Below, piece by piece: positions 1 through 56,541 of a DNA stretch of 64,000 bases. Source of the stretch: Eledone cirrhosa. Its lineage: Eukaryota. The stretch is taken from assembly GCA_964016885.1 (NCBI GenBank), contig OZ024741.1:295058001-295122000 (forward strand), written 5' to 3'. A model generated the notes under the pieces. It saw only the letters and a list, made by a program, of their open reading frames with translations. It did not search any database and had not been told where the DNA came from. A program made the position numbers and the translations under genes. Numbering within the stretch: position 1 is the first letter of the stretch; each line of letters starts with the position of its first letter.

Positions 1-300
<300 letters not shown>

Positions 301-337
301 ATATATAAGATCAAAAGATGGTTAAAAGAGTTCCATG

Positions 338-408
338 TATTTTATTATGCGCATTTCAAAAATAAATATCATCATACGATGACATTTGCGTTTTCGTCAG
401 ATAAAATA
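338..408 (-). ncRNA. Type I hammerhead ribozyme motif, mirror copy
   Basis: Reverse-complement copy of 536-606 in the left arm; core, stem I and stem III identical; one loop change and one C-A mismatch in stem II. Confidence 0.8.
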
Positions 409-535
409 GGGCGACATGATATGAAGGTTAAAAAACACTTGTGAATAGTGCAGTTTTAAATCAACATATGATCAATATGTTGATTTAAAACTGCACTATT
501 CACAAGTGTTTTTTAACCTTCATATCATGTCTCCC

Positions 536-606
536 TATTTTATCTGACGAAAACGCAAATGTCATCGCATGATGATATTTGTTTTTGAAATGCGCATAAT
601 AAAATA
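536..606 (+). ncRNA. Type I hammerhead ribozyme motif
   Basis: Stem I TATTTTAT (536-543)/ATAAAATA (599-606); core CTGACGA (544-550); stem II 551-586 with GCAT loop; GAAA (587-590); palindromic stem III TGCGCA; NUH = AUA, predicted cut after 598. Confidence 0.85.
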
Positions 607-734
607 CATGGAACTCTTTTAACCATCTTTTGATCTTATATATTATTTATACTCCAGTCCTACAAACTGTAGAGTGCTACTTATCCGATATCTGCATTGC
701 TTTATTGTACTACAATAAAACTCACCTCCTACAT

Positions 735-767
<33 letters not shown>

Positions 768-834
768 ATATATATATATATATTATATATATATATTATA
801 TAATATATATATATAATATATATATAATATATAT

Positions 835-1004
835 ACACTGTAAATGTGGTTGGTGTTAGGAAGGGCATCCAACTGTAGAAAACCTGCCAGACAGTCCTAT
901 GCGAGCAAGACAATCACTCTTGCCTCAAGTGGGACTACCCCCGTCCAAACCCATGCAAGCGTGGAACACGGACGTTAAACGTTGATGATGATGATGATGA
1001 TGAT
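835..1004 (+). mobile_element. RTE LINE 3'-terminal fragment (3'UTR type B) with (GAT)n tail
   Basis: Matches the 3' end of the RTE copy at 36836-38070 (ggttggtgttaggaagggc...ggacgttaaacg-(gat)n). Confidence 0.85.
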
Positions 1005-5453: not shown

Positions 5454-5480
<27 letters not shown>

Positions 5481-5817: not shown

Positions 5818-6050
5818 ATCATCATCATTTTACGTCCATTTCTCCACGCTTGGATGGGTTTTAGGAGTTGTCCCATTGTGGACAATGTTAGGTCAGGTGA
5901 CCATGTCTTGCTCATACAGGCCTGATCTTGGCTAGGTTTCTACAGCTGGATGCCCTTCCTAACGCCAACCTCATTCACATGAGTACTAGGTGCATTTTGT
6001 CATGACACCTACACGATCACTTTACAGTGTGGGCTGGCTGCTTTTTACCA
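5818..6050 (-). mobile_element. RTE 3'UTR fragment (type A), tail-to-tail with the SINE
   Basis: Similar to 1260-1500. Confidence 0.75.
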
Positions 6051-6118
6051 TTATATATATATATAACTTTGATAACTTTTGGTCAGTGTTGGCCCAGCCA
6101 TGTTAATTTAAAAGCATC

Positions 6119-6157
<39 letters not shown>

Positions 6158-6158
<1 letters not shown>

Positions 6159-6588
6159 CATTGCTGTAGTGGAGTCTGTGCTGCTGTATGGGTCTGAGAC
6201 TTGGACACTGACCAAGAAACTCACTCAGATGGTGGATGGGTGCTACACGGGAATGCTGAGGATGGCTCTGAACATTAATCAGTATACACTGAGGATGAAA
6301 AACTCAGAGCTGTATGGGAGCATCCCAAAAGTCAGCTCAAAAGTGACACAGAGGAGACTGAGGTTGGCTGGACATGCTCACCGACATCCAGAGTTGACAT
6401 TGCACTCAGTGCTCCTGTGGGAGCCCCTACATGGACACACTAGAAGAGGAAGACCAAGTTTAACGTATGTTGATGCCCTAAGGACAGACACTGGTCTGTT
6501 GGAGATGCAGGACATGGCAGCGATAATGAGGGACAGAGACCGCTGGAGAGAACTCATCCATGGATCTCAGGAATTTTACCCACCTTAG
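6158..6588 (+). mobile_element. 3' fragment of a second, divergent RTE-like LINE family
   Basis: VESVLLYGSETWTLTK...MLRMALNI...RRLRLAGH...RGRP...DRDRWR motif string. Confidence 0.85.
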
Positions 6589-8050
6589 AGATATATATAT
6601 ATATACATACTCTCACTATCATCATCATTATCATTTAATATCCATTTTCCCAGTACAAGTAAGAAAATAATGTACTCAATACAAACAAGCACTATTGTAA
6701 ATGCATACAAGAAATAATTTAAAACAGTACAAAGAGAATTATTTGGGATTCTATCCTTGTGACCACTTGTGCCGTCAGGCAGTCTCTTTAGGCTCTGTTC
6801 ATTTTGTTTGTCTATCAGTAAACTTCCTGCTCATTCTCTATAACATTCTTCTCACCATTCCCAACAGTCACCTTCTGCAGTATTATGTCAGTTTTTAGTC
6901 TGACACACAGTTTATATAGGATCACCAACAAGAACATCAAAATCACCTATGCCACTTGAAACCATGTTGTTGTGAAGCAAAACCATGCCTTGTTTTTTTT
7001 CATAGTGACTATATTATCTAAGAGCAATGGTTCATACCCAATCTATACCAATACAATTAGTGTCTATTAGAAAAGTGAGAAATATTTTATTGGTTTAACT
7101 ATTCAAACCCTGAGTAATTGTTAACAAAGGTCTCTGTGACCTTTTTATCTCAGAGTAAATGTCACTTATGTTACTGACCAATCCCTTGAAAACTAAAAAT
7201 AAATTGATACCTATTCCATTATAAAACTCCCTGATGCTTAATGATAAACAGAGGAATGGTAAAAAAATATATACATATATATTAGGTCTGAACATAATGG
7301 AATCAAATTCCCATTGTTACTGCCTCGTCTCTCTCACTCTATTGTAAATGTATTGAAATTCTCATCTTAGGATTAATGAAATACATTTACCCAATCTCTT
7401 GCCAACAATTATGTTGCTTCCACTATCCAACTTTCCTCATTATTCTATCACTCTGTTCTCCCCCTTCACACTCTTTCCCTTTGGTTGTTGTCTAACACAG
7501 CTCTGAAACCTTGACACTCTCCCAATTGCTCAAGCCCCCTTCTACCTGGCCCTGCCCCCCATATTGCTCAACCTCCCTCCTACTTCCTTCCCAGTAGTCA
7601 TGAAGTTCCTCAAAAATCTCCTTCCCTCCTTTACTAATCAATGAAAATAATTTATTAGAAATCATTATTATTATAAATAAAGTACCAGTAATGCACTGGG
7701 GTTGATTTAATTGACTTTTTCCTCCCCCAAAATTGTTTGGCTTTGTGCCTAAATCAGAAAGCATTATCATTATAGGAAAAGAGGAGTGGGGTTGTGGGGG
7801 TAAAATGCCTTATGTCATTTAATTTTATGCTGTAAGATCAAATCCTGCTGAAGTGAACATTACCTTTTATCTTTCCAGTCACATGCTGTGGTCAATATAC
7901 TCAACTTTCATCTCTCTTCAAATTGTTAGTCTTGAGCCTAAATTAGAAACCATGTTGACTTTGCCTTTCATCCTTACGGAGTCGATAAAATAAAGTACCA
8001 GTAATGAACTGGGTAATTGCTGGCCTTGTGCCTAAAGTAGAAACAATTAT

Positions 8051-11185: not shown

Positions 11186-11780
<595 letters not shown>

Positions 11781-23350: not shown

Positions 23351-23365
23351 TATAGAATTCCAGCC

Positions 23366-23880
23366 TCAGTCCAGCTCCATCATCAGTACCCAAGTCTCAA
23401 TGCCCCTCAGTCCAGCTCTATCATCAGTACCCAAGTCACAGTACCTCCCTGTCCATTATCAGTGCCCAAGTCACAGTACCTCCCTGTCCATTATCAGTGC
23501 CCAAGTCTCAATGCCCCTCAGTCCAGCTCTATCATCAGTATCCAAGTCTCAATGCCCCTCAGTCCAGCTCTATCATCAGTACCCAAGTCACAGTACCTCC
23601 CTGTCCATTATCAGTGCCCAAGTCACAGTACCTCCCTGTCCATTATCAGTGCCCAAGTCTCAATGCCCCTCAGTCCTGCTCTATCATCAGTGCCCAAGTC
23701 TCAATGCCTCCTGTCCGGCTCCATCACCAGTGCCAAGTCACGATGCCTCCCTGTCCAGCTCCATTATCAGTGCCCAAGTCACACTACCTCCATGTCCAGT
23801 TCCATCATCAGTACCCAAGTCACAATACCTCTTTGTCCAGCTCCATCATCAGTGCCTAACCAAGTCTCACTGCCATGCAG
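23366..23880. repeat. Minisatellite of alternating 41-bp and 35-bp related units
   Basis: Units ccagctctatcatcagtacccaagtctcaatgcccctcagt and ccctgtccattatcagtgcccaagtcacagtacct. Confidence 0.92.
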
Positions 23881-29919: not shown

Positions 29920-30091
29920 AACGAAGTAATTGTGTTAAGGAACCAGATGGACCATAACGCACCAGAGTACTCAATACTTAGAGCAGTAGAGTGGGTAATA
30001 AGAAAAGGTATGATCCCCGACGGCAGAGCTATTCAGTCCAGAAATAGCCGTCAAAACGGCTTGAGCTCTGCCATCGGGGTCATACCTTTTC

Positions 30092-30095
<4 letters not shown>
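29920..30095. repeat. Dispersed repeat with strong hairpin (relative at about 40222-40420)
   Basis: Shared leader aaggaacca..tggaccata.cgcaccagagtactcaatact...gagtgggtaata; hairpin at 30002-30091. Confidence 0.75.
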
Positions 30096-30145
<50 letters not shown>

Positions 30146-30324
30146 TCATCATCATCATCATCGTTTAATGTGCATCTTCCACGCTAGCATGGGTTTGGAT
30201 GGGAATTTTCCCAATTGAGGCAAGATTGGTTGTCTTGCTTGTATATATATATATATAGTAGTAGTAATAGGTAGGTAAAAATATCCAAGGTATAGAGCAA
30301 CGCAAGTTTGTAGGGCAAGTTTGA

Positions 30325-30528
30325 ATATAATTATTAAGGCAAGTTACTACAATGGCACAATACTAGGTACATACGTTTCATGAACCCTGAGGACCTTGTT
30401 CAACCTGTGCTAATGAAAATGAACTGGTTTATTTTCATTGGCACAGGTTGAACAAGTTCGTCCTCTGGCTAATGAAACATACATACCTGGTATAACTCCA
30501 TTTTAGTAACTGGCCTTAATAATTATAT
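30325..30528. repeat. Imperfect inverted repeat, ~100-bp arms, with degenerate hammerhead-like motifs
   Basis: atataattattaaggc...cttgttcaacctgtgctaatgaaaat pairs with attttcattggcacaggttgaacaag...gccttaataattatat; centre near 30425. Confidence 0.8.
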
Positions 30529-30552
30529 ATGTGTGTGTATATATATATATAT

Positions 30553-38939: not shown

Positions 38940-40111
38940 ATTTATTTATCAAACTTGGGTCAGTTTGTCTTCATGACTTGTTCTTTCGATCTCACTCGAT
39001 AAACCCGCCATTAGCTTTGATGACGGCTTCAAGGCGGCCTCGGAACCAGTTACAGGCCTTCATCACTGTCCCCCGACTTAGGCCCCTAAAGGCACTTGTG
39101 ATCCTGGCCTTCAGATCGTCTTTCGTATTGCAGCTAGATCTGTTGGTGTCTCATTCCACTGCGCCCCACACAAAGAAGTCGAGGGGTTGCAGTCAGGCGA
39201 GCTGGGAGGCCAGATGTCAGGTGAAATGTGGTTGACAAAGTTCTCTGACATCCAGGCTTGGGTCTTTTGGCTGGTATGGCAGGGTGCTGAGTCTTGCTGC
39301 CACACGTACGGCCTACCTGCAGCTACCTGGTCGATCCAGGGCTTTACTATCTCGCTCAGAATGCGGATGTAGCCATTGGTGTTCAGCTTGATGCCTTCAG
39401 GGAAGAAGTGAGGTGGCGTGACGCCACCTTGACTGCTGACGACACTTAAGACCAATGTTGTCGCTGGAAACTTTGTCTTCTGGTCTTGGCAGAAGTTTTT
39501 CTCGTCGGAGACAAACCACAGCATGTCTGGCTCCAGTCGGTGTTTCAACTTGTTGATCAGCTTCTTTGTGTGCTTCAGTTGCTTTTCTTGCATCGCCTTT
39601 GACAGAAATTGTCCTTTCCTCATCTTGTATTAAACGTAGCGAATGTCTTCATGTACCACCAGCCTAATGAGCTTTTCATCCACGCCTTTCTCACTTGCAA
39701 TGGCACGCATCGACTTGCTAGGTTCATTGTTGATGATATCCTGAACTTCAGTGACGAACTCGGGCGTTCTGAAGGCGTCAGATCATCGATCATGTGTTTT
39801 CCTCTCTGATGTTGTGTTGTAGTCGAATCCTGAATCTTCCAATTCCTTTCTGACCTTTTCTACCATTCTCCTGCTGACGCTGAGAAAGTCTGAAATTTCC
39901 TTATTTGTCCTCCCGGCGTGGATTCCAAGAAGAACTCTGTGTCTCTTCCACAAATCTGGAGGTTCAAAATTATTCACAATCAATTATTCTGAAAATAAAT
40001 AATGGAAATATAGTCACTGTTTTTTATTAAGACAAGAGTGACAACGGAAGTAAAAAATATGTGCATAAAATTAGCAGTTGAAAATTGCAAACAAATATCG
40101 TCCGCACCCTG
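38940..40111 (-). mobile_element. Decayed Tc1/mariner-superfamily transposon, DD37D (maT-like)
   Basis: SDEKNF, WQQDSAPCH, WPPSSPDCNP then frameshifted LDFFVWG gives D-37-D spacing; HTH-like N-terminus in ORF 39783-39983; terminus TA-CAGGGTG at 40111; other TIR not found. Confidence 0.88.
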
Positions 40112-40441
40112 TATGTATATATATATATGTATGTATGTATGTATATGTATGTATGTATATGTATGTATGTGTATATGTATGTATATAAATATATATATGT
40201 ATGTATATATATATATTTATGTAACGTAGGAAGTGTGGGAAGGAACCAAGTGGACCATAGCGCACCAGAGTACTCAATACTTTGGGTAGTTGAGTGGGTA
40301 ATAGGAAAAGAGTCAGAACCCCACTGGGGTTCTAACTATTTAGTCAGGCTATTTAACCCCTAGTTAGTGTGGATGGCCATTGACTTGAGGATTTCATCCA
40401 TCCTCATCCTTGTAACTGTGTATTTATAAATATTATAAATA

Positions 40442-43289: not shown

Positions 43290-44340
43290 CCTATAGACAA
43301 TCTTATTAGATCATATTCTATGTTGGTGATGTATACAAAAGAAAAAGCAATCTCTAAAGCATTATTAAGAAGGGCGGTGGATTGGCAGTATCGGTAGAGG
43401 GTCGGACGCCATGCTTTGCAGCACAGTTACGTCCCTTTACGGACTGAGTTCAAATCCCGCCGAGGTTAACTTTGCCTTTCATCCTTACGGGGTCGATAAA
43501 ATAAAGTACCAGTAATACACTGGGATAATTGCTGGCCTTGTGCCAAAAAGTAGAAACAATTATTAAGAAGGGTCTTAGAAATAGTGGAATAGAAATCTAT
43601 GGTGTCAAACTGTGAATTTGGTCCTGTTCTTAAAGGGGGGTTCCAGATAACCAGGACATAACAATTGTGTTATTCCACATTGAGAGATTGGTGTTCTTAA
43701 TAATACAAGTGTTGGTGTATCTTAAACATTTTACTAGCTAGTTCTAACTCTGTCCTTGCAGTATTTATTAATCTACAGCTAGGCTCATTTGTGAAATCAG
43801 GTTTGTGATCTTTCAGGGTAATGAAGGCATCACATTCTGCTAAGCATTCTACTCTATTCTCTATTTTAAAATTTGTGGCAATATCTTTGGCTTCATCATT
43901 AATCTTGTTATATGTGTTAGATTTGACATTCTGGTATTTATTTGCTATGTTATTAAGGATAAGGTTGTTATACTTTTCCTTATCTAGTACATCCAAATTC
44001 TTTGCTTTGTTCAAAAGTACAAAAACCTTCTTAGTCGATTTGAAGTTTTTAATGTCATTTGCAAGAAGTGTATGTTGGAAGGGATTATGATACATATGCA
44101 ACTTAATGGTAGCGACTAAATCTAATGGGTCAGCTTCAAAAGGGGCTAAGTCCTTAACTTAGGGGGGGGGGGGTTACTGAATGGATGTATCGTTAAATTT
44201 CTCGGTGGCAGTGGTGGCCATCTCACTGTCGAACAGAAGAGCCTTCCATCTCATCCTATGAACAGCAGTGTAAGGAGTGTTGGTAGATGTCGGAATGTTT
44301 TTGGTGGAATAATCTATCTTGTATAGATTCACATGTAGTA
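43290..44340 (-). pseudogene. Penelope-like retroelement ORF relic (N-terminal region and start of RT)
   Basis: YSTKNIP..RMRWKA, AFITLKDHKPDF..PSCRLIN.A..EL, then QFDTIDFYSTISKTLL (FDIxxxYPSI-type motif); stops and frameshifts; split by a SINE. Confidence 0.8.
43372..43564 (+). mobile_element. Young full-length SINE family B inside the Penelope-like relic
   Basis: TSD attattaagaaggg on both sides; intact A and B boxes. Confidence 0.92.
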
Positions 44341-47046: not shown

Positions 47047-50000
47047 AGATCATGCCAATTACCAGTCTAGTACCACACAGAGTCTTAGATCATGTCAATC
47101 ACCAGTCTAGTACACCACACAGTCTTAGATCATGTCAATTACCAGTCTAGTACAACACAGAGTCTTAGATCATGTCAATTACCAGTCTAGTACAACACAG
47201 TCTTAGATCATGTCAATCACCAGTCTAGTACACCACACAGTCTTAGATCATGTCAATTACCAGTCTAGTACAACACACAGTCTTAGATCATTTCAATTGC
47301 CAGTCTAGTACACTACACAGTCTTAGATGATGTCAATTACCAGTCTAGTACAACACACAGTCTTAGATCATGTCAATTGCCAGTCTAGAACAACACACAA
47401 TCTTAGATCATGTCAATTACCGGTCTAGTACACCACACAATCTTAGATCATGTCAATTACCGGTCTAGTACACCACACAGTCTTAGATCATGTCAATTAC
47501 CAGTCTAGTACAACACACAGTCTTAGATCATGTCAATCACTAGTCTAGTACAACACAGTCTTAGATCATGTCAATTGCCAGTCTAGTACAAAGCAGTCTT
47601 AGATCATGTCAATTGCCAGTCTAGTACACCACACAGTCTTAGATCATGTCAATTGCCAGTCTAGTACAATACAGTCTTAGATCATGTCAATTACCAATCT
47701 AGTACAACACACAGTCTTAGATCATGTCAATCACCAGTCTAGTACAACACACAGACTTAGATCATGTCAATTGCCAGTCTAGTGAAATGCAGTCTTAGAT
47801 CATGTCAATCACCCGTCTAGTACAACACACAGTCTCAGATCCTGTCATTGCCAGTCTAGTACAATTCAGTCTTAGATCATGTCAATTGCTAGTCTAGTAC
47901 ACCACACAGTCTTAGATCATGTCAATTACCAGTCTAGTACAATACAGTCTTAGATCATGTCAATTACCAGTCTAGTACAACAAACAGTCTTAGCTCAGCT
48001 CATGTCAATTGACAGTCTAGTACAACACAGTTTTAGATCATGTCAATTACCAGCCTAGTACAACACAGAGTCTTAGATAATGTCAACTGCCAGTCTAGTA
48101 CAATGTAGTCTTAGCTCATGTCAATCACCAGTGTAGTACAACACACAATCTTAGATCATGTCAATTACCAGTCTAGTACAACACACAGTCTTACATCATG
48201 TCAATCACCAGTGTAGTACACCACACTATCTTAGATCATGTCAATCACCTTTGTAGTACACCACACAGTCTTAGATCATGTCAATCACCAGTCTAGTACA
48301 CCACACAGTCTTAGATCATGTCAATTGCCAGTCTAGTACAACACTGTCTTAGATCATGTCAATTACCAGTCTAGTACACCACACAGTCTTAGATCATGTC
48401 AATCACGAGTCTAGTACAACACACAGTCTTAGATAATGTCAATTGCCAGTCTAGTACAATGCAGTCTTAGATCATGTCAATCACCAATCTAGTACAACAC
48501 ACATTCTTAGATCATGTCAATAACCAGTCTAGTTCAACACACAGATTTAGATCATGTCAATCTCCAGTCTAGTACACCACGCAGACTTAGATCATGTCAA
48601 TTACCAGTCTAGTACAACACACAGTCTTAGATCATGTAAATTGCCAGTCTAGTACAACACACAGTCTTAGATCATGTCAATTACCAGTCTAGTACAATGC
48701 TGTCTTAGATCATGTAAATTGCCAGTCTAGTACACCACACAGTCATAGATCATGTCAATTACCAGTCTAGTACACCACACAGTCTTAGATCATGTAAATT
48801 GCCAGTCTAGTACAATGCAGTCTTAGATCATGTCAATGACCAGTCTAGTATGCCACACAGTCTGAGATCATGTCAATTGCTAGTCTAGTACACCACACAA
48901 TCTTAGATCATGTCAATCACCAGTCTAGTACACCACACTACCTTAGATCATGTCAATCACCTGTGTAGTACACAACACAGTCTCAGATCATGTCAATCAC
49001 TAGTCTAGTACAACACAGTCTTAGATCATGTCAATTACCAATCTAGTACAACACACAGTCTTAGATCAGGTTAGTAACCAGTCTCATACAACACACAGAT
49101 TTAGATCATGTCAATTACCAGTCTAGTACACCTCACAGTCTTACATCATGTCAATCACCAGTCTAGTACACCACACAGTCTTAGATCATGTCAATTACCA
49201 GTCTAGTACAACACACTGTCTTAGATCATGTGAATCACCGGTCTAGTACACGACACAATCTTAGATCATGTTAATTACCAGTCTAGTACACCACACAGTC
49301 TTAGATCATGTCAATTACCAGTCTAGTACACCACACAGTCTCAGATCATGTCGATTACCAGTCTAGTACACCACACTGTCTTAGATCATGTCAATCACCA
49401 GTCTAGTACACCACACAGTCTTAGATCATGTCAATTACCAGTCTAGTACAACACACAGTCTTATATCATATAAATTACCAGTCTAGTACACCACACTATC
49501 TTAGATCATGTCAATCACCTGTCTAGTACACCACACAGTCTTAGATCATGTCAATCACTAGTCTAGTACAACACTTTCTTAGATCATGTCAATTACCAGT
49601 CTAGTACAACACACAGTCTTATATCATGTCAATCACGAGTCTAGTACAACACACAGTCTTAGATCATGTCAATAACCAGTCTAGTACAACACACAGATTT
49701 AGATCATGTCAATCTCCAGTCTAGTACACCACACAGTCTTAGAACATGTCAATTACCAGTCTAGTACAACACACAGTCTCAGATCATGTAAATTGCCAGT
49801 CTAGTACAATGCAGTCTTAGATCATGTCAATCACCAGTCAAGTACAACACATAGTCTTAGCTCATGTCAATTACCAGTCTAGTACACCACACAGTCTTAG
49901 ATCATGTCAATCACTAGTCTAGTACAACACTGTCTTAGATCAGGTCAATTACCAGTCTAGTACACCACACAATCTTAGATCATGTCAATGACCAGTCTAG

Positions 50001-53000
50001 TACATCACACTGTCTTAGATCATGTCAATTACCAGTCTAGTACACCACACAGTCTTAGATCATGTCAATCACCAGTCTAGTACACCACACAATCTTAGAT
50101 CATGTCAATTACCAGTCTAGTACAATACACAGTCTTAGCTCATGTCAATCACCAGTGTAGTACAGCACACAATCTTAGATCATGTCAATTACCAGTCTAG
50201 TACAACACACAGTCTTACATCATGTCAATCACCAGTGTAGTACACCACACTATCTTAGATCATGTCAATCACCTTTGTAGTACACCACACAGTCTTAGAT
50301 CATGTCAATCACCAGTCTAGTACACCACACAGTCTTAGGTCATGTCAATTGCCAGTCTAGTACAACACTGTCTTAGATCATGTCAATTACCAGTCTAGTA
50401 CACCACACAGTCTTAGATCATGTCAATCATGAGTCTAGTACAACACACAGTCTTAGATAATGTCAATTGCCAGTCTAGTACAATGCAGTCATAGATCATG
50501 TCAATCACCAATCTAGTACAACACACATTCTTAGATCATGTCAATAACCAGTCTAGTTCAACACACAGATTTAGATCATGTCAATCTCCAGTCTAGTACA
50601 CCACGCAGACTTAGATCATGTCAATTACCAGTCTAGTACAACACACAGTCTTAGATCATGTAAATTGCCAGTCTAGTACAACATACAGTCTTAGATCATG
50701 TCAATTGCCAGTCTAGTACAACACACAGTCTTAGATCATGTCAATTACCAGTCTAGTACAATGCAGTCTTAGATCATGTAAATTGCCAGTCTAGTACACC
50801 ACACAGTCATAGATCATGTCAATTACCAGTCTAGTACACCACACAGTCTTAGATCATGTAAATTGCCAGTCTAGTACAATGCAGTCTTAGATCATGTCAA
50901 TGACCAGTCTAGTACACCACACAGTCTGAGATCATGTCAATTGCTAGTCTAGTACACCACACAATCTTAGATCATGTCAATCACCAGTCTAGTACACCAC
51001 ACTACCTTAGATCATGTCAATCACCTGTGTAGTACACAACACAGTCTCAGATCATGTCAATCACTAGTCTAGTACAACACAGTCTTAGATCATGTCAATT
51101 ACCAATCTAGTACAACACACAGTCTTAGATCATGTTAATAACCAGTCTCATACAACACACAGATTTAGATCATGTCAATTACCAGTCTAGTACACCTCAC
51201 AGTCTTACATCATGTCAATCACCAGTCTAGTACACCACACAGTCTTAGATCATGTCAATTACCAGTCTAGTACAACACACTGTCTTAGATCATGTGAATC
51301 ACCGGTCTAGTACACAACACAATCTTAGATCATGTTAATTACCAGTCTAGTACACCACACAGTCTTAGATCATGTCAATTACCAGTCTAGTACACCACAC
51401 AGTCTCAGATCATGTCAATTACCAGTCTAGTACACCACACTGTCTTAGATCATGTCAATCACCAGTCTAGTACACCACACAGTCTTAGATCATGTCAATT
51501 ACCAGTCTAGTACAACACACAGTCTTATATCATGTAAATTACCAGTCTAGTACACCACACTATCTTAGATCATGTCAATCACCATTCTAGTACACCACAC
51601 TATCTTAGATCATGTCAATCACCTGTCTAGTACACCACACAGTCTTAGATCATGTCAATTACTAGTCTAGTACAACACTTTCTTAGATCATGTCAATTAC
51701 CAGTCTAGTACAACACACAGTCTTATATCATGTCAATCACGAGTCTAGTACAACACACAGTCTTATATCATGTCAATAACCAGTCTAGTACAACACACAG
51801 ATTTAGATCATGTCAATCTCCAGTCTAGTACACCACACAGTCTTAGAACATGTCAATTACCAGTCTAGTACAACACACAGTCTCAGATCATGTAAATTGC
51901 CAGTCTAGTACAATGCAGTCTTAGATCATGTCAATCACCAGTCAAGTACAACACATAGTCTTAGCTCATGTCAATTACCAGTCTAGTACACCACACAGTC
52001 TTAGATCATGTCAATCACTAGTCTAGTACAACACTATCTTAGATCATGTCAATTACCAGTCTAGTACACCACACAATCTTAGATCATGTCAATGACCAGT
52101 CTAGTACAACACACTGTCTTAGATCATGTCAATTACCAGTCTAGTACACCACACAGTCTTAGATCATGTCAATTGCTAGTCTAGTACACCACACAATCTT
52201 AGATCATGTCAATCACCAGTCTAGTACACCACACTACCTTAGATCATGTCAATCACCTGTGTAGTACACAACACAGTCTCAGATCATGTCAATCACTAGT
52301 CTAGTACAACACAGTCTTAGATCATGTCAATTACCAATCTAGTACAACACACAGTCTTAGATCATGTTAATAACCAGTCTCATACAACACACAGATTTAG
52401 ATCATGTCAATTACCAGTCTAGTACACCTCACAGTCTTACATCATGTCAATCACCAGTCTAGTACACCACACAGTCTTAGATCATGTCAATTACCAGTCT
52501 AGTACAACACACTGTCTTAGATCATGTGAATCACCGGTCTAGTACACGACACAATCTTAGATCATGTTAATTACCAGTCTAGTACACCACACAGTCTTAG
52601 ATCATGTCAATTACCAGTCTAGTACACCACACAGTCTCAGATCATGTCAATTACCAGTCTAGTACACCACACTGTCTTAGATCATGTCAATCACCAGTCT
52701 AGTACACCACACAGTCTTAGAACATGTCAATTACCAGTCTAGTACAACACACAGTCTCAGATCATGTAAATTGCCAGTCTAGTACAATGCAGTCTTAGAT
52801 CATGTCAATCACCAGTCAAGTACAACACATAGTCTTAGCTCATGTCAATTACCAGTCTAGTACACCACACAGTCTTAGATCATGTCAATCACTAGTCTAG
52901 TACAACACTATCTTAGATCATGTCAATTACCAGTCTAGTACACCACACAATCTTAGATCATGTCAATGACCAGTCTAGTACAACACACTGTCTTAGATCA

Positions 53001-56000
53001 TGTCAATTACCAGTCTAGTAGACCACACAGTCTTAGATCATGTCAATTGCCAGTCTAGTACACCACACAATCTTAGATCATGTCAATTACCAGTCTAGTA
53101 CAACATACAGTCTTAGATCATGTCAATTGCCTGTCTAGTACACCACACAGTCTTAGATCATGTCAATTGCTAGTCTAGTACACCACACAATCTTAGATCA
53201 TGTCAATCACCAGTCTGGTACAATGCAGTCTTAGATCATGTCAATTGCCAGTCTAGTACACCACACAGTCTTAGATCATGTCAATCACCAGTTCTAGTAC
53301 ACCACACAGTCTTAGATCATGTCAATCACCAGTCTAGTACAACACAGTCTTAGATCATGTCAATTGCCAGTCTAGTACAATGCAGTCTTAGATCATGTCA
53401 ATTACCAGTCTAGTACACTACACAGTCTTAGATCATTTCAATCACCAGTCTAGTACAACACACAGACTTAGATCATGTCAATTGCCAGTCTAGTACAATG
53501 CAGTCTTAGATCATGTCAATTGCTAGTCTAGTACACCACACAATCTTAGACCATGTCAATTACCAGTCTAGTACAACACACTGTCTTAGATCATGCTGAT
53601 TGCCAGTCTAGTACACCACACAGTCTTAGATCATGTCAATCACCAGTCTAGTACAACACACAGTCTCGGATCCTGTCAATTGCTAGTCTAGTACACCACA
53701 CAGTCTTAGATCATGTCAATTGCTAGTCTAGTACACCACACAGTCTTAGATCATGTCAATTACCAGCTTAGTACACCACACAGTCTTAGATCATGTCAAT
53801 TGCCAGTCTAGTACACCACACAGTCTTAGATCATGTCAATCACCAGTCTAGTACACAACACAATCTTAGATCATGTCAATTACCAGTCTAGTACAACACA
53901 CAGTCTTACATCATGTCAATCACCAGTGTAGTACACCACACTATCTTAGATCATGTCAATCACCTTTGTAGTACACCACACAGTCTTAGATCATGTCAAT
54001 CACCAGTCTAGTACACCACACAGTCTTAGATCATGTCAATTGCCAGTCTAGTACAACACTGTCTTAGATCATGTCAATTACCAGTCTAGTACACCACACA
54101 GTCTTAGATCATGTCAATCACGAGTCTAGTACAACACACAGTCTTAGATAATGTCAATTGCCAGTCTAGTACAATGCAGTCTTAGATCATGTCAATCACC
54201 AATCTAGTACAACACACATTCTTAGATCATGTCAATAACCTGTCTAGTTCAACACACAGATTTAGATCATGTCAATCTCCAGTCTAGTACACCACGCAGA
54301 CTTAGATCATGTCAATTACCAGTCTAGTACAACACACAGTCTTAGATCATGTAAATTGCCAGTCTAGTACAACATACAGTCTTAGATCATGTCAATTGCC
54401 AGTCTAGTACAACACACAGTCTTAGATCATGTCAATTACCAGTCTAGTACAATGCAGTCTTAGATCATGTAAATTGCCAGTCTAGTACACCACACAGTCA
54501 TAGATCATGTCAATTACCAGTCTAGTACACCACACATTCTTAGATCATGTAAATTGCCAGTCTAGTACAATGCAGTCTTAGATCATGTCAATGACCAGTC
54601 TAGTACACCACACAGTCTGAGATCATGTCAATTGCTAGTCTAGTACACCACACAATCTTAGATCATGTCAATCACCAGTCTAGTACACCACACTACCTTA
54701 GATCATGTCAATCACCTGCGTAGTACACAACACAGTCTCAGATCATGTCAATCACTAGTCTAGTACAACACAGTCTTAGATCATGTCAATTACCAATCTA
54801 GTACAACACACAGTCTTAGATCATGTTAATAACCAGTCTCATACAACACACAGATTTAGATCATGTCAATTACCAGTCTAGTACACATCACAGTCTTACA
54901 TCATGTCAATCACCTTTGTAGTACACCACACAATCTTAGATCATGTCAATCACCTTTGTAGTACACCACACAGTCTTAGATCATGTCAATCACCAGTCTA
55001 GTACACCACACAGTCTTAGATCATGTCAATTACCAGTCTAGTACAACACACTGTCTTAGATCATGTGAATTACCAGTCTAGTACACGACACAATCTTAGA
55101 TCATGTCAATTACCAGTCTAGTACACCACACAGTCTTAGATCATGTCAATTACCAGTCTAGTACACCACACTGTCTCAGATCATGTCAATTACCAGTCTA
55201 GTACACCACACAGTCTTAGATCATGTCAATTACCAGTCTAGTACAACACACAGTCTTAGATCATGTAAATTACCAGTCTAGTACACCACACTATCTTAGA
55301 TCATGTCAATCACCATTCTAGTACACCACACTATCTTAGATCATGTCAATCACCTGTCTAGTACACCACACAGTCTTAGATCATGTCAATCACTAGTCTA
55401 GTACAACACTTTCTTAGATCATGTCAATTACCAGTCTAGTACACCACACAGTCTTATATCATGTCAATCACGAGTCTAGTACAACACACAGTCTTAGATC
55501 ATGTCAATAACCAGTCTAGTACAACACACAGATTTAGATCATGTCAATCTCCAGTCTAGTACACCACACAGTCTTAGAACATGTCAATTACCAGTCTAGT
55601 ACAACACACAGTCTCAGATCATGTAAATTGCCAGTCTAGTACAACATACAGTCTTAGGTCATGTCAATTACCAGTCTAGTACACCACACAATCTTAGATC
55701 AAGTCAATTGCCAGTCTAGTACACCACACAGTCTTAGATCATGTCAATTACCAGTCTAGTACACCACACAGTCTTAGATCAAGTCAATTGCCAGTCTAGT
55801 ACAATGCAGTCTTAGATCATGTCAATCACCAGTCAAGTACAACACATAGTCTTAGCTCATGTCAATTACCAGTCTAGTACACCACACAGTCTTAGATCAT
55901 GTCAATCACTAGTCTAATACAACACTGTCTTAGATCATGTCAATTACCAGTCTAGTACACCACACAGTCTTAGATCATGTCAATTGCCAGTCTAGTACAC

Positions 56001-56541
56001 CACACAATCTTAGATCATGTCAATGACCAGTCTAGTACAACACACTGTCTTAGATCATGTCAATTACCAGTCTAGTACACCACACAGTCTTAGATCATGT
56101 CAATTGCCAGTCTAGTACACCACACAATCTTAGATCATGTCAATTACCAGTCTAGTACAACTTACAGTCTTAGATCATGTCAATTGCCAGTCTAGTACAC
56201 CACACAGTCTTAGATCATGTCAATTGCTAGTCTAGTACACCACACAATCTTAGATCATGTCAATCACCAGTCTGGTACAATGCAGTCTTAGATCATGTCA
56301 ATTGCCAGTCTAGTACACCACACAGTCTTAGATCATGTTAATCACCAGTCTAGTACACCACACAGTCTTAGATCATGTCAATCACCAGTCTAGTACAACA
56401 CAGTCTTAGATCATGTCAATTGCCAGTCTAGTACAATGCAGTCTTAGATCATGTCAATTACCAGTATAGTACACCACACAGTCTTAGATCATGTCAATTG
56501 CTAGTCTAGTACAATGCAGTCTTAGATCATGTTAATTGCCA
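47047..56541. repeat. Satellite array, about 240 monomers of 38-40 bp, with higher-order repeats
   Basis: Consensus AGTCTTAGATCATGTCAATTACCAGTCTAGTACA(A/C)CACAC; no ORF in the track across the array; diagnostic variants recur in fixed order. Confidence 0.98.

Follow-up and report, generated by a model that had tools for sequence, protein, structure and literature searches.

A palindrome carrying two divergent hammerhead ribozyme motifs lies at 298-733 of the window, the stretch of 64,000 nucleotides that was analysed, and the question it raises is what kind of element it is and how it came to be inserted into a (TA)n microsatellite as an inverted pair. The palindrome occupies 436 bases, with arms of 172 nt each (298-469 and 475-646) that are 98% complementary across a gap of 5 nt and differ at three sites, at right-arm positions 532, 568 and 581, as the earlier sequence-only reading of this DNA had claimed. 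That reading was also correct in placing an AATAAA at 714-719 and (TA)n on both flanks. A tail (647-733) is present on the right arm only. A check of the open reading frames found none encoding a reverse transcriptase (RT) or a GIY-YIG endonuclease (EN) inside or adjoining 298-733, and the window as a whole is AT-rich DNA of animal type, with an apparent likeness to cephalopod genomes, that is rich in (TA)n and in LINE fragments, which we take to be RTE-like. The palindrome is likely to be the protein-less end of a Penelope-like element (PLE), probably of the Hydra clade, and its parts are given in Table 1.

Table 1. Features of the palindrome and its flanks, in window coordinates.
Feature	Position	Strand	Basis or remark
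(TA)n microsatellite, left target flank	6..297	.	sequence
Inverted arm, pseudo-LTR-like unit without tail	298..469	-	outer end matches the short 3' end of the family
Type I hammerhead motif, left copy	338..408	-	descriptor; predicted cut between 346 and 345
Head-to-head junction; includes CATATG (465-470), a hexamer that is its own complement	465..474	.	sequence
Direct arm, pseudo-LTR-like unit	475..651	+	475 is a sharp family boundary and inverted-junction hotspot
Predicted 5' stem-loop of the unit	475..530	+	folding, z -2.5
Type I hammerhead motif, right copy	536..606	+	descriptor; predicted cut after 598
TA-like tract holding the short 3' end of family copies	638..651	+	43-53 nt past the predicted cut
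Tail of one arm only, about 82-87 nt, reaching the long 3' end	647..733	+	135 nt past the predicted cut
Bulged stem-loop, candidate RT/EN recognition site	651..678	+	comparison with Hydra-clade tails
8-bp hairpin, its 3' strand including AATAAA (714-719)	701..719	+	folding
(TA)n microsatellite, right target flank	735..835	.	sequence

Immediately adjoining the palindrome, at 836-1420, are two 3' ends of an abundant RT-encoding repeat with (ATG)n-type tails, which face each other across a further (TA)n run (1006-1245) and together form an inverted repeat of 82%.

Each arm had been said to encode a complete type I hammerhead on its own strand, and a type I descriptor bears this out, with two matches in the 64-kb window, both of them the palindrome arms, and none in 20 block-shuffled windows. 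In the right copy stem I is 8 bp (536-543 with 599-606), the core consists of CUGACGA (544-550) and GAAA (587-590), stem II (551-586, 36 nt) has 15 pairs with one C-U mismatch and a 4-nt loop, and stem III is an 8-nt palindrome (590-597) with the AUA triplet at 596-598. Stem II is closed by an A-U pair in place of the usual G-C (G10.1-C11.1), a pair that is strongly conserved though not invariant, and both 551G and 586C are seen, unphased, as variants in the repeat family to which the arms belong. The left copy has lost one C-G pair of stem II (581) and its fold is poorer than that of the right copy. When 525-615 is folded the mean pair probability is 0.84 for stem I and for stem II, the closure of stem III as a monomer costs 2.9 kcal/mol, which leaves it unstable alone, and the self-duplex of stem III amounts to -10.5 kcal/mol, as in motifs of the dimer type. 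The hammerhead is a terminal-repeat ribozyme, and for cleavage it would need either a dimer, formed through the palindrome of stem III, or the help of a protein. The two ribozymes are on opposite strands, so that neither can serve as the cis dimer partner of the other.

The sequence-only reading had looked to hammerhead models for confirmation, and on this the two methods part: no Rfam hammerhead model matches either arm, whereas the descriptor finds both. Rfam also misses the hammerheads that the descriptor finds in two Hydra-clade loci, L071 and L072, and is therefore an insensitive test. At the centre of the palindrome Rfam gave only sub-threshold matches to hairpins of the miRNA type, and a miRNA identity was rejected as these matches reflect the hairpin shape alone. 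It had further been proposed that a read-through transcript would hide the ribozyme within a hairpin, which is upheld as a prediction: the 298-733 transcript is predicted to fold into a hairpin of -280 kcal/mol in which the probability of stems I and II is 0.00, and a transcript reading across the centre would form a 172-bp duplex that abolishes the ribozyme fold. Within the palindrome the hammerhead is most likely a part that is carried along.

The arms are copies of an abundant repeat. Four public runs were aligned to 420-734 of the window at 80% likeness, giving 5032 contigs and 5377 raw RAD reads from organism A, and 69 and 37 contigs from organisms B and C, which come from one study; run X1 may share its source with the window. 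Ten further organisms share 0.06-0.34 of words, with B and C being those that were aligned beside A. The counts that follow draw on the rows listed, which are 40 of 92 variants, 15 of 37 joints and 20 of 207 loose ends, with variants that are unphased, copies that are related and RAD data that over-weight a few loci. A high-copy family is found in all four runs and in all three organisms. At 475 raw depth leaps from some 30 to about 690, after which it rises toward the 3' end. An extension upstream of 475, of which about 30 letters are visible, is common to 341 reads (X16), 1 contig (X6) and 19 (X1), and it implies that a longer form of the family exists. Scans with arm patterns, of which the one used on the metagenome carried a minority allele, gave best matches of 20-25 nt in the metagenome (54 loci) and in viral contigs (13 loci); these were rejected as chance, with no hammerhead descriptor match in those 67 loci.

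The family has two kinds of 3' end. Short ends run into (TA)n at about 641-651 in all four runs (274 + 106 reads; 53, 8, 2 and 2 contigs), and a long end runs into (TA)n at about 732-733 in one contig among the loose ends listed, with coverage reaching 734 in 4/4 runs. Of the two arms of the palindrome, the left one thus stops where the short copies do and the right one where the long copies do, and so 647-733, into which the right arm had been thought to continue as unique sequence, is a tail and part of the repeat family. The role in polyadenylation that had been implied for the AATAAA is likewise unsupported, as it belongs to the 3' strand of a hairpin and the element terminates in (TA)n with no poly(A) after it.

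Head-to-head junctions recur among the joints. In each of the 15 that are listed of the 37, an inverted arm that breaks off at 459-475 is followed by a direct arm whose start lies at 568-704, which makes the 5' truncation variable, and for 5 of the 15 this start falls within the tail. Thirteen contigs of organism A, one of B and two of C have a junction 9 nt shorter than that of the window, and 2 contigs and 19 raw reads, these from 2 starts, have one that is shorter by 1 nt. By inspection both are perfect palindromes, the 9-nt-shorter one being centred on CATATG. The age of the window copy is harder to judge. It had been called young, for which the three arm mismatches speak a little, but the family is diverse, with only 274 of the 5377 raw reads showing at least 99% likeness, and the arms of a palindrome can be homogenised by repair, so that three mismatches date it weakly.

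The variation among copies also bears on the ribozyme. Of the listed variants (40 of 92), 15 lie within 536-606. Pairing is kept on the ribozyme strand in 8 of the 9 listed variants of stems I and II and on the opposite strand in 3 of 9, a preference with p about 0.02 against a transition null among copies that are related, and the ninth variant (586) would pair with the listed change at 551 if the two were in phase. The only core change listed is at the free N7 position; the lack of changes at the 11 invariant positions of the core does not reach significance by itself (p 0.18). The expectation that other copies would keep both core and stems has thus held for the stems, with the core less telling. 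Loop II has four variants among the listed rows, all of them transversions, and a loose end before 578/579 marks a subfamily in which the 5' half of stem II has another sequence, the base of the stem still pairing by eye. A change at 592 (G>T) that breaks the palindrome of stem III is found in 1184 minus-direction reads (X16) and 1 contig (X1), and it coincides with 1142 molecules ending at 589 in the RAD run; its abundance may be a restriction-site effect. On the pattern of these variants the hammerhead appears to be maintained by selection at the level of the family, the activity of the copy here being a prediction.

The likely source of such a unit is sought among the Hydra-clade PLEs, of which the window itself holds a relic. 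At 43487-44332 (-) the 5' half of an ORF of this clade survives in decayed form, interrupted by stops and frameshifts; it is 43% identical to P0001 over 296 residues. The marks of the clade are RWK, DKT and CxCx5C with no CCHH (PMC8557442). The relic keeps RWK and has a degenerate DKT, and in the seven relatives checked RWK is found in 5/7, a DKT-like motif in 6/7 and CxCx4-7C in 6/7. Pfam gave nothing for the relic or for 5/6 relatives, and sub-threshold matches only for P0009. The relic is without its 3' half and hence cannot be tied to the palindrome.

A scan of genome contigs for Hydra-clade protein gave five loci (L068-L072), filed as bacterial bins and probably animal DNA within those bins, of which only L071 and L072 have hammerhead matches; the same scan of viral contigs gave no match. 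In L072 a hammerhead and (TA)n close a Hydra ORF, upstream of which lies a truncated copy in inverted orientation, and two ORF-less palindromes (6006-6289 and 6697-7107) adjoin this ORF. In both of these palindromes the hammerheads are divergent, the flanks TA-rich and the tail confined to one arm. Over 169 nt the first shares 80% identity with the 3' end of a copy of the Hydra ORF found in L071. From cut to short end is 51 and 51 nt in these units, against 48-53 at the window palindrome, and from cut to long end is 118 and 116 nt, against 135; published Hydra consensuses end 29-69 nt (12/24), 87-152 nt (11/24) or 354 nt (1/24) past the cut. More widely, Hydra-clade PLEs and several double-hammerhead units are spread over L072 2169-7107 and L071 1831-2660, and at L072 -7302 a hammerhead-like motif with a palindromic stem III sits inside a further inverted repeat (7117-7433).

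Insertion in (TA)n together with a canonical hammerhead near the 3' end is a Hydra trait that the palindrome shows, and one that is not exclusive to Hydra. At the level of sequence the arm gave no match in the five Hydra loci, and the segment after the ribozyme with the tail, compared with those loci, was not significant in 13 of 14 alignment tests, the other having an uncorrected p of 0.03. Five 11-nt motifs had no match in the six consensuses in Craig's files, a set without Repbase. Hydra-1_Obim was rejected as a match, since its hammerhead is not the same and its consensus stops early.

The tail provides a further point of comparison. Its stem-loop is made up, by eye, of an outer RCUC/GAGY stem, an inner stem of 3-5 bp and a 2-nt UW bulge, followed by RCU. 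A strict descriptor, which is post hoc and was built on the window, L071, L072 and Hydra-2_Amil sequences, gives five matches (window +651, window -29992, L071 +2108, L072 -6066 and L072 -6756) across 73 records totalling 446,774 bases and none in 50 shuffles, and all five fall in tails of this kind; a relaxed form gives three extra matches, at unrelated loci. Both window matches have A-U as the outer pair where the others have G-C, and the inner stems are not alike. The motif begins 53, 52, 58 and 57 nt past the hammerhead cut, with short 3' ends sitting 0-10 nt 5' of it. In the published consensuses it is also recognised by eye at the 3' ends of Hydra-2_Amil and Hydra-2_Ajap and at the 5' start of Hydra-1_Ajap, with an imperfect form in Hydra-1_Crog; the Ajap and Crog occurrences and the second window match came to light after the descriptor had been built. 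Among the hammerhead-bearing PLE clades this comparison covered Hydra alone. Within the family the variant 671 A>T yields a UU bulge, and none of the variants listed (40 of 92) lies within the stems of the motif. Unconstrained folding of 647-733 favours another local fold, and the structure is for that reason a comparative one. As such, the stem-loop may be a recognition site for the RT/endonuclease. In the open literature, outside subscription journals, Repbase and Dfam, no account was found of this repeat family or of the tail stem-loop.

The second window match belongs to another (TA)n-flanked unit (29921-30094, -), with inverted arms of about 30 nt, a 33-nt spacer that includes a 6-bp hairpin, and a tail of about 81 nt with the stem-loop. 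It is unrelated in sequence to the palindrome and gave neither a hammerhead nor an Rfam match. It is probably truncated before the ribozyme or carries a different RNA motif. The tail of this unit is 85% alike over 87 nt to 40224-40310 (-), which adjoins (TA)n and has a slightly decayed stem-loop with a different GC-rich hairpin upstream.

Other repeats of the window are of different kinds. An imperfect inverted repeat (30258-30537, about 81% over 208 nt) between TA-rich runs is MITE-like, a 40-bp satellite of 239 copies with strong GC skew takes up 9.5 kb (47047-56541), and a 41-bp/152-bp tandem array (23364-23856) has open frames on the + strand. A transposase remnant (39111-39629, -) has a sub-threshold match to DDE_3 (E 0.007), and a marginal tRNA match (11459-11516, +; 31.1 bits) heads a repeat that is also found near 5480 and 36100 and is probably a tRNA-derived SINE.

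The palindrome can be set beside several known systems. Hydra-clade PLEs share with it the (TA)n target and a canonical type I hammerhead, which lies some 30-150 nt before the 3' end (Craig et al. 2021, PMC8557442), Penelope-13_HM of Hydra likewise has an inverted 5'-truncated copy with a hammerhead on each strand, and Hydra-2_Ajap and Hydra-2_Amil have the tail stem-loop in common with it. It differs from them in having no ORF, in the lack of any sequence match found and in its stem II of 15 pairs. Its stem III is fully palindromic (AUGC/GCAU) and begins AUG, whereas that of Hydra-clade PLEs is of the form AC...GU and begins AC in all 25 Hydra-clade rows of File S2, and its tail of 82-87 nt compares with the 30-40 nt stated for PLEs. 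The PLE hammerheads described by Cervera and de la Pena (2014, PMC4209133) resemble those of the palindrome in their long helix II, palindromic helix III and predicted dimer activity, and differ in that the 8 bp of stem I here run without interruption, stem II has about double the length and A-U stands for G10.1-C11.1. With no ORF the palindrome is not classed as an autonomous PLE, only as an ORF-less derivative. The unit works like the terminal repeat of a PLE, and support is found for three points that were read from the sequence at the outset: its Penelope-like origin, the inverted form of its terminal repeat and a stem III of the dimer type.

How the pair was inserted is best considered through work on the one PLE that has been studied in vitro. 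The protein of Poseidon PAc from Anolis nicks and extends both target strands, has two internal RT starts that bound the tail and uses uncleaved RNA as template, with hammerhead cleavage assisted by protein (Frangieh et al. 2024, PMC11167929). Poseidon PAc also has two 3' ends with the tail between them, an AT-rich target and a ribozyme in the copied RNA, as the palindrome does. It differs in belonging to another clade, in being autonomous and in starting reverse transcription in an AC-rich stem-loop within the ORF (PMC11167929), whereas the short end of the palindrome lies just 5' of a non-coding bulged stem-loop. From this in vitro behaviour we infer copying from two starts at the palindrome. 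It is reasonably probable that its units are ORF-less, hammerhead-bearing ends inserted head-to-head in (TA)n in one event by the RT/EN of a PLE, probably of the Hydra clade, with the uncleaved RNA copied twice. The protein, supplied in trans, would bind the tail stem-loop (651-678) of the sense RNA and nick both (TA)n strands. One strand would then be extended from the long end at 733 and the other from the short end at about 641-651, just 5' of the stem-loop, and the two cDNAs would meet head-to-head; their joint would often be the hexamer at the 5' boundary of the RNA, which is self-complementary. Two starts with head-to-head joining are proposed to account for a tail on one arm only. The inverted 5'-truncated copy, one-sided tail and (TA)n bias are described for PLEs (PMC8557442), and palindromes occur at the inverted PLE junction (PMC3846280).

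A wider version of this can be put forward more tentatively, as plausible but somewhat short of probable: Hydra-clade PLEs would share an undescribed stem-loop about 40-58 nt past the cut, a protein recognition site that sets the inner RT start, and a short ORF-less RNA with a fixed 5' end would exploit it and be copied twice on the nicked (TA)n strands.

The same class of element could have formed its palindrome by fold-back, which is possible yet doubtful. Here cDNA begun at the long end would reach 475, loop back through the hexamer or microhomology, copy itself and be captured by (TA)n at 638-651. This would suit a junction hotspot fixed at the self-complementary hexamer and the recurrence of perfect-palindrome junctions, the short end of both L072 units, like that of the palindrome, falls within a TA-like tract, and self-priming has already been proposed (PMC3846280). 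Both arms carry the same minority alleles (548, 561, 563 and 566), and thus come from one template or subfamily, as fold-back would have it, but a shared haplotype is equally expected if one RNA was copied twice. Against fold-back stands the PLE protein that in vitro extends both strands from two internal starts matching the tail (PMC11167929). Short contigs cannot tell which arm bears the tail, and so two-start copying and fold-back explain the same data.

With either mechanism of insertion the parent might be another hammerhead-bearing, (TA)n-targeting clade (Neptune, Penelope/Poseidon or Nematis), although this is rather unlikely. PLEs of Drosophila, rotifer, shrimp and mosquito combine a small palindromic helix III with a long helix II (PMC4209133), stem III at the palindrome is unlike the AC start of the Hydra rows, and there is no sequence link to Hydra. 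The spacing from cut to end and the tail stem-loop nonetheless match the Hydra loci and consensuses, and there is a Hydra relic within the window, Hydra being the one PLE protein searched for.

The palindrome had also been called retrozyme-like. Non-LTR retrozymes are, like it, short and non-coding, with a type I hammerhead and a probable PLE origin (PMC7229834; bioRxiv 10.64898/2026.07.22.740005), and are argued to stem from PLE pLTRs in the latter; a type I hammerhead, a unit of about 260 nt and high copy number would fit a solo or rearranged monomer of such an element, spreading through tandem repeats and circular RNA. Those retrozymes, however, are head-to-tail tandems with circular RNA, where the palindrome is head-to-head with variable 5' truncation. 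The window has no tandem direct copy, the 15 joints listed of 37 include no 3'-to-5' head-to-tail joint and no listed copy boundary falls at the cut site, 598/599. With no tandem the palindrome is not classed as a retrozyme, and such an origin is quite improbable.

Long palindromes in (TA)n are prone to fold-back artefacts. That the locus is an artefact of assembly or library of this kind, or a MITE or foldback DNA element with a chance hammerhead-like sequence, is barely credible, for although no listed piece spans the whole of 298-733, the arms differ at three sites, the flanks are not mirrored, both outer ends are family ends, stem conservation is strand-specific, the recurrence of centre-spanning head-to-head junctions in three organisms and in raw reads makes an assembly artefact unlikely, and in place of the fixed-end inverted repeats of a MITE the family runs through the tail to 733 with variable truncation.

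In L1 twin priming an inverted 5' segment is joined head-to-head to a direct 3' segment. The palindrome differs from this in having no poly(A) and in having arms that overlap in sequence, from which it follows that the template would be copied twice, unlike in L1.

The insertion of PLE-derived ends, copied twice from one RNA, stays the favoured reading, and what it means for the family can be put as follows. Dual hammerheads 100-700 bp apart on opposite strands have already been described in PLEs (PMC4209133), and a double hammerhead within an inverted repeat is accordingly less surprising than it first appeared; it is a described by-product of Penelope-like insertion, to which the tail stem-loop is the added feature. 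As the family escapes Rfam, ribozymes of this sort are undercounted. The origin of the inverted pseudo-LTRs, the one-sided tails and the microsatellite bias of PLEs is named as open in PMC8557442, and the family, with a minimal template of 260 nt, ends defined at two positions, a junction that keeps to one hotspot and a stem-loop that is a candidate for a conserved protein-binding site, puts the question of the inverted repeat and tail within reach of a test. If a recognition stem-loop is indeed shared, the junctions would be a natural record of how PLEs form the inverted repeat and the one-sided tail, and the numerous palindromes with double ribozymes would be a large potential source of dsRNA.
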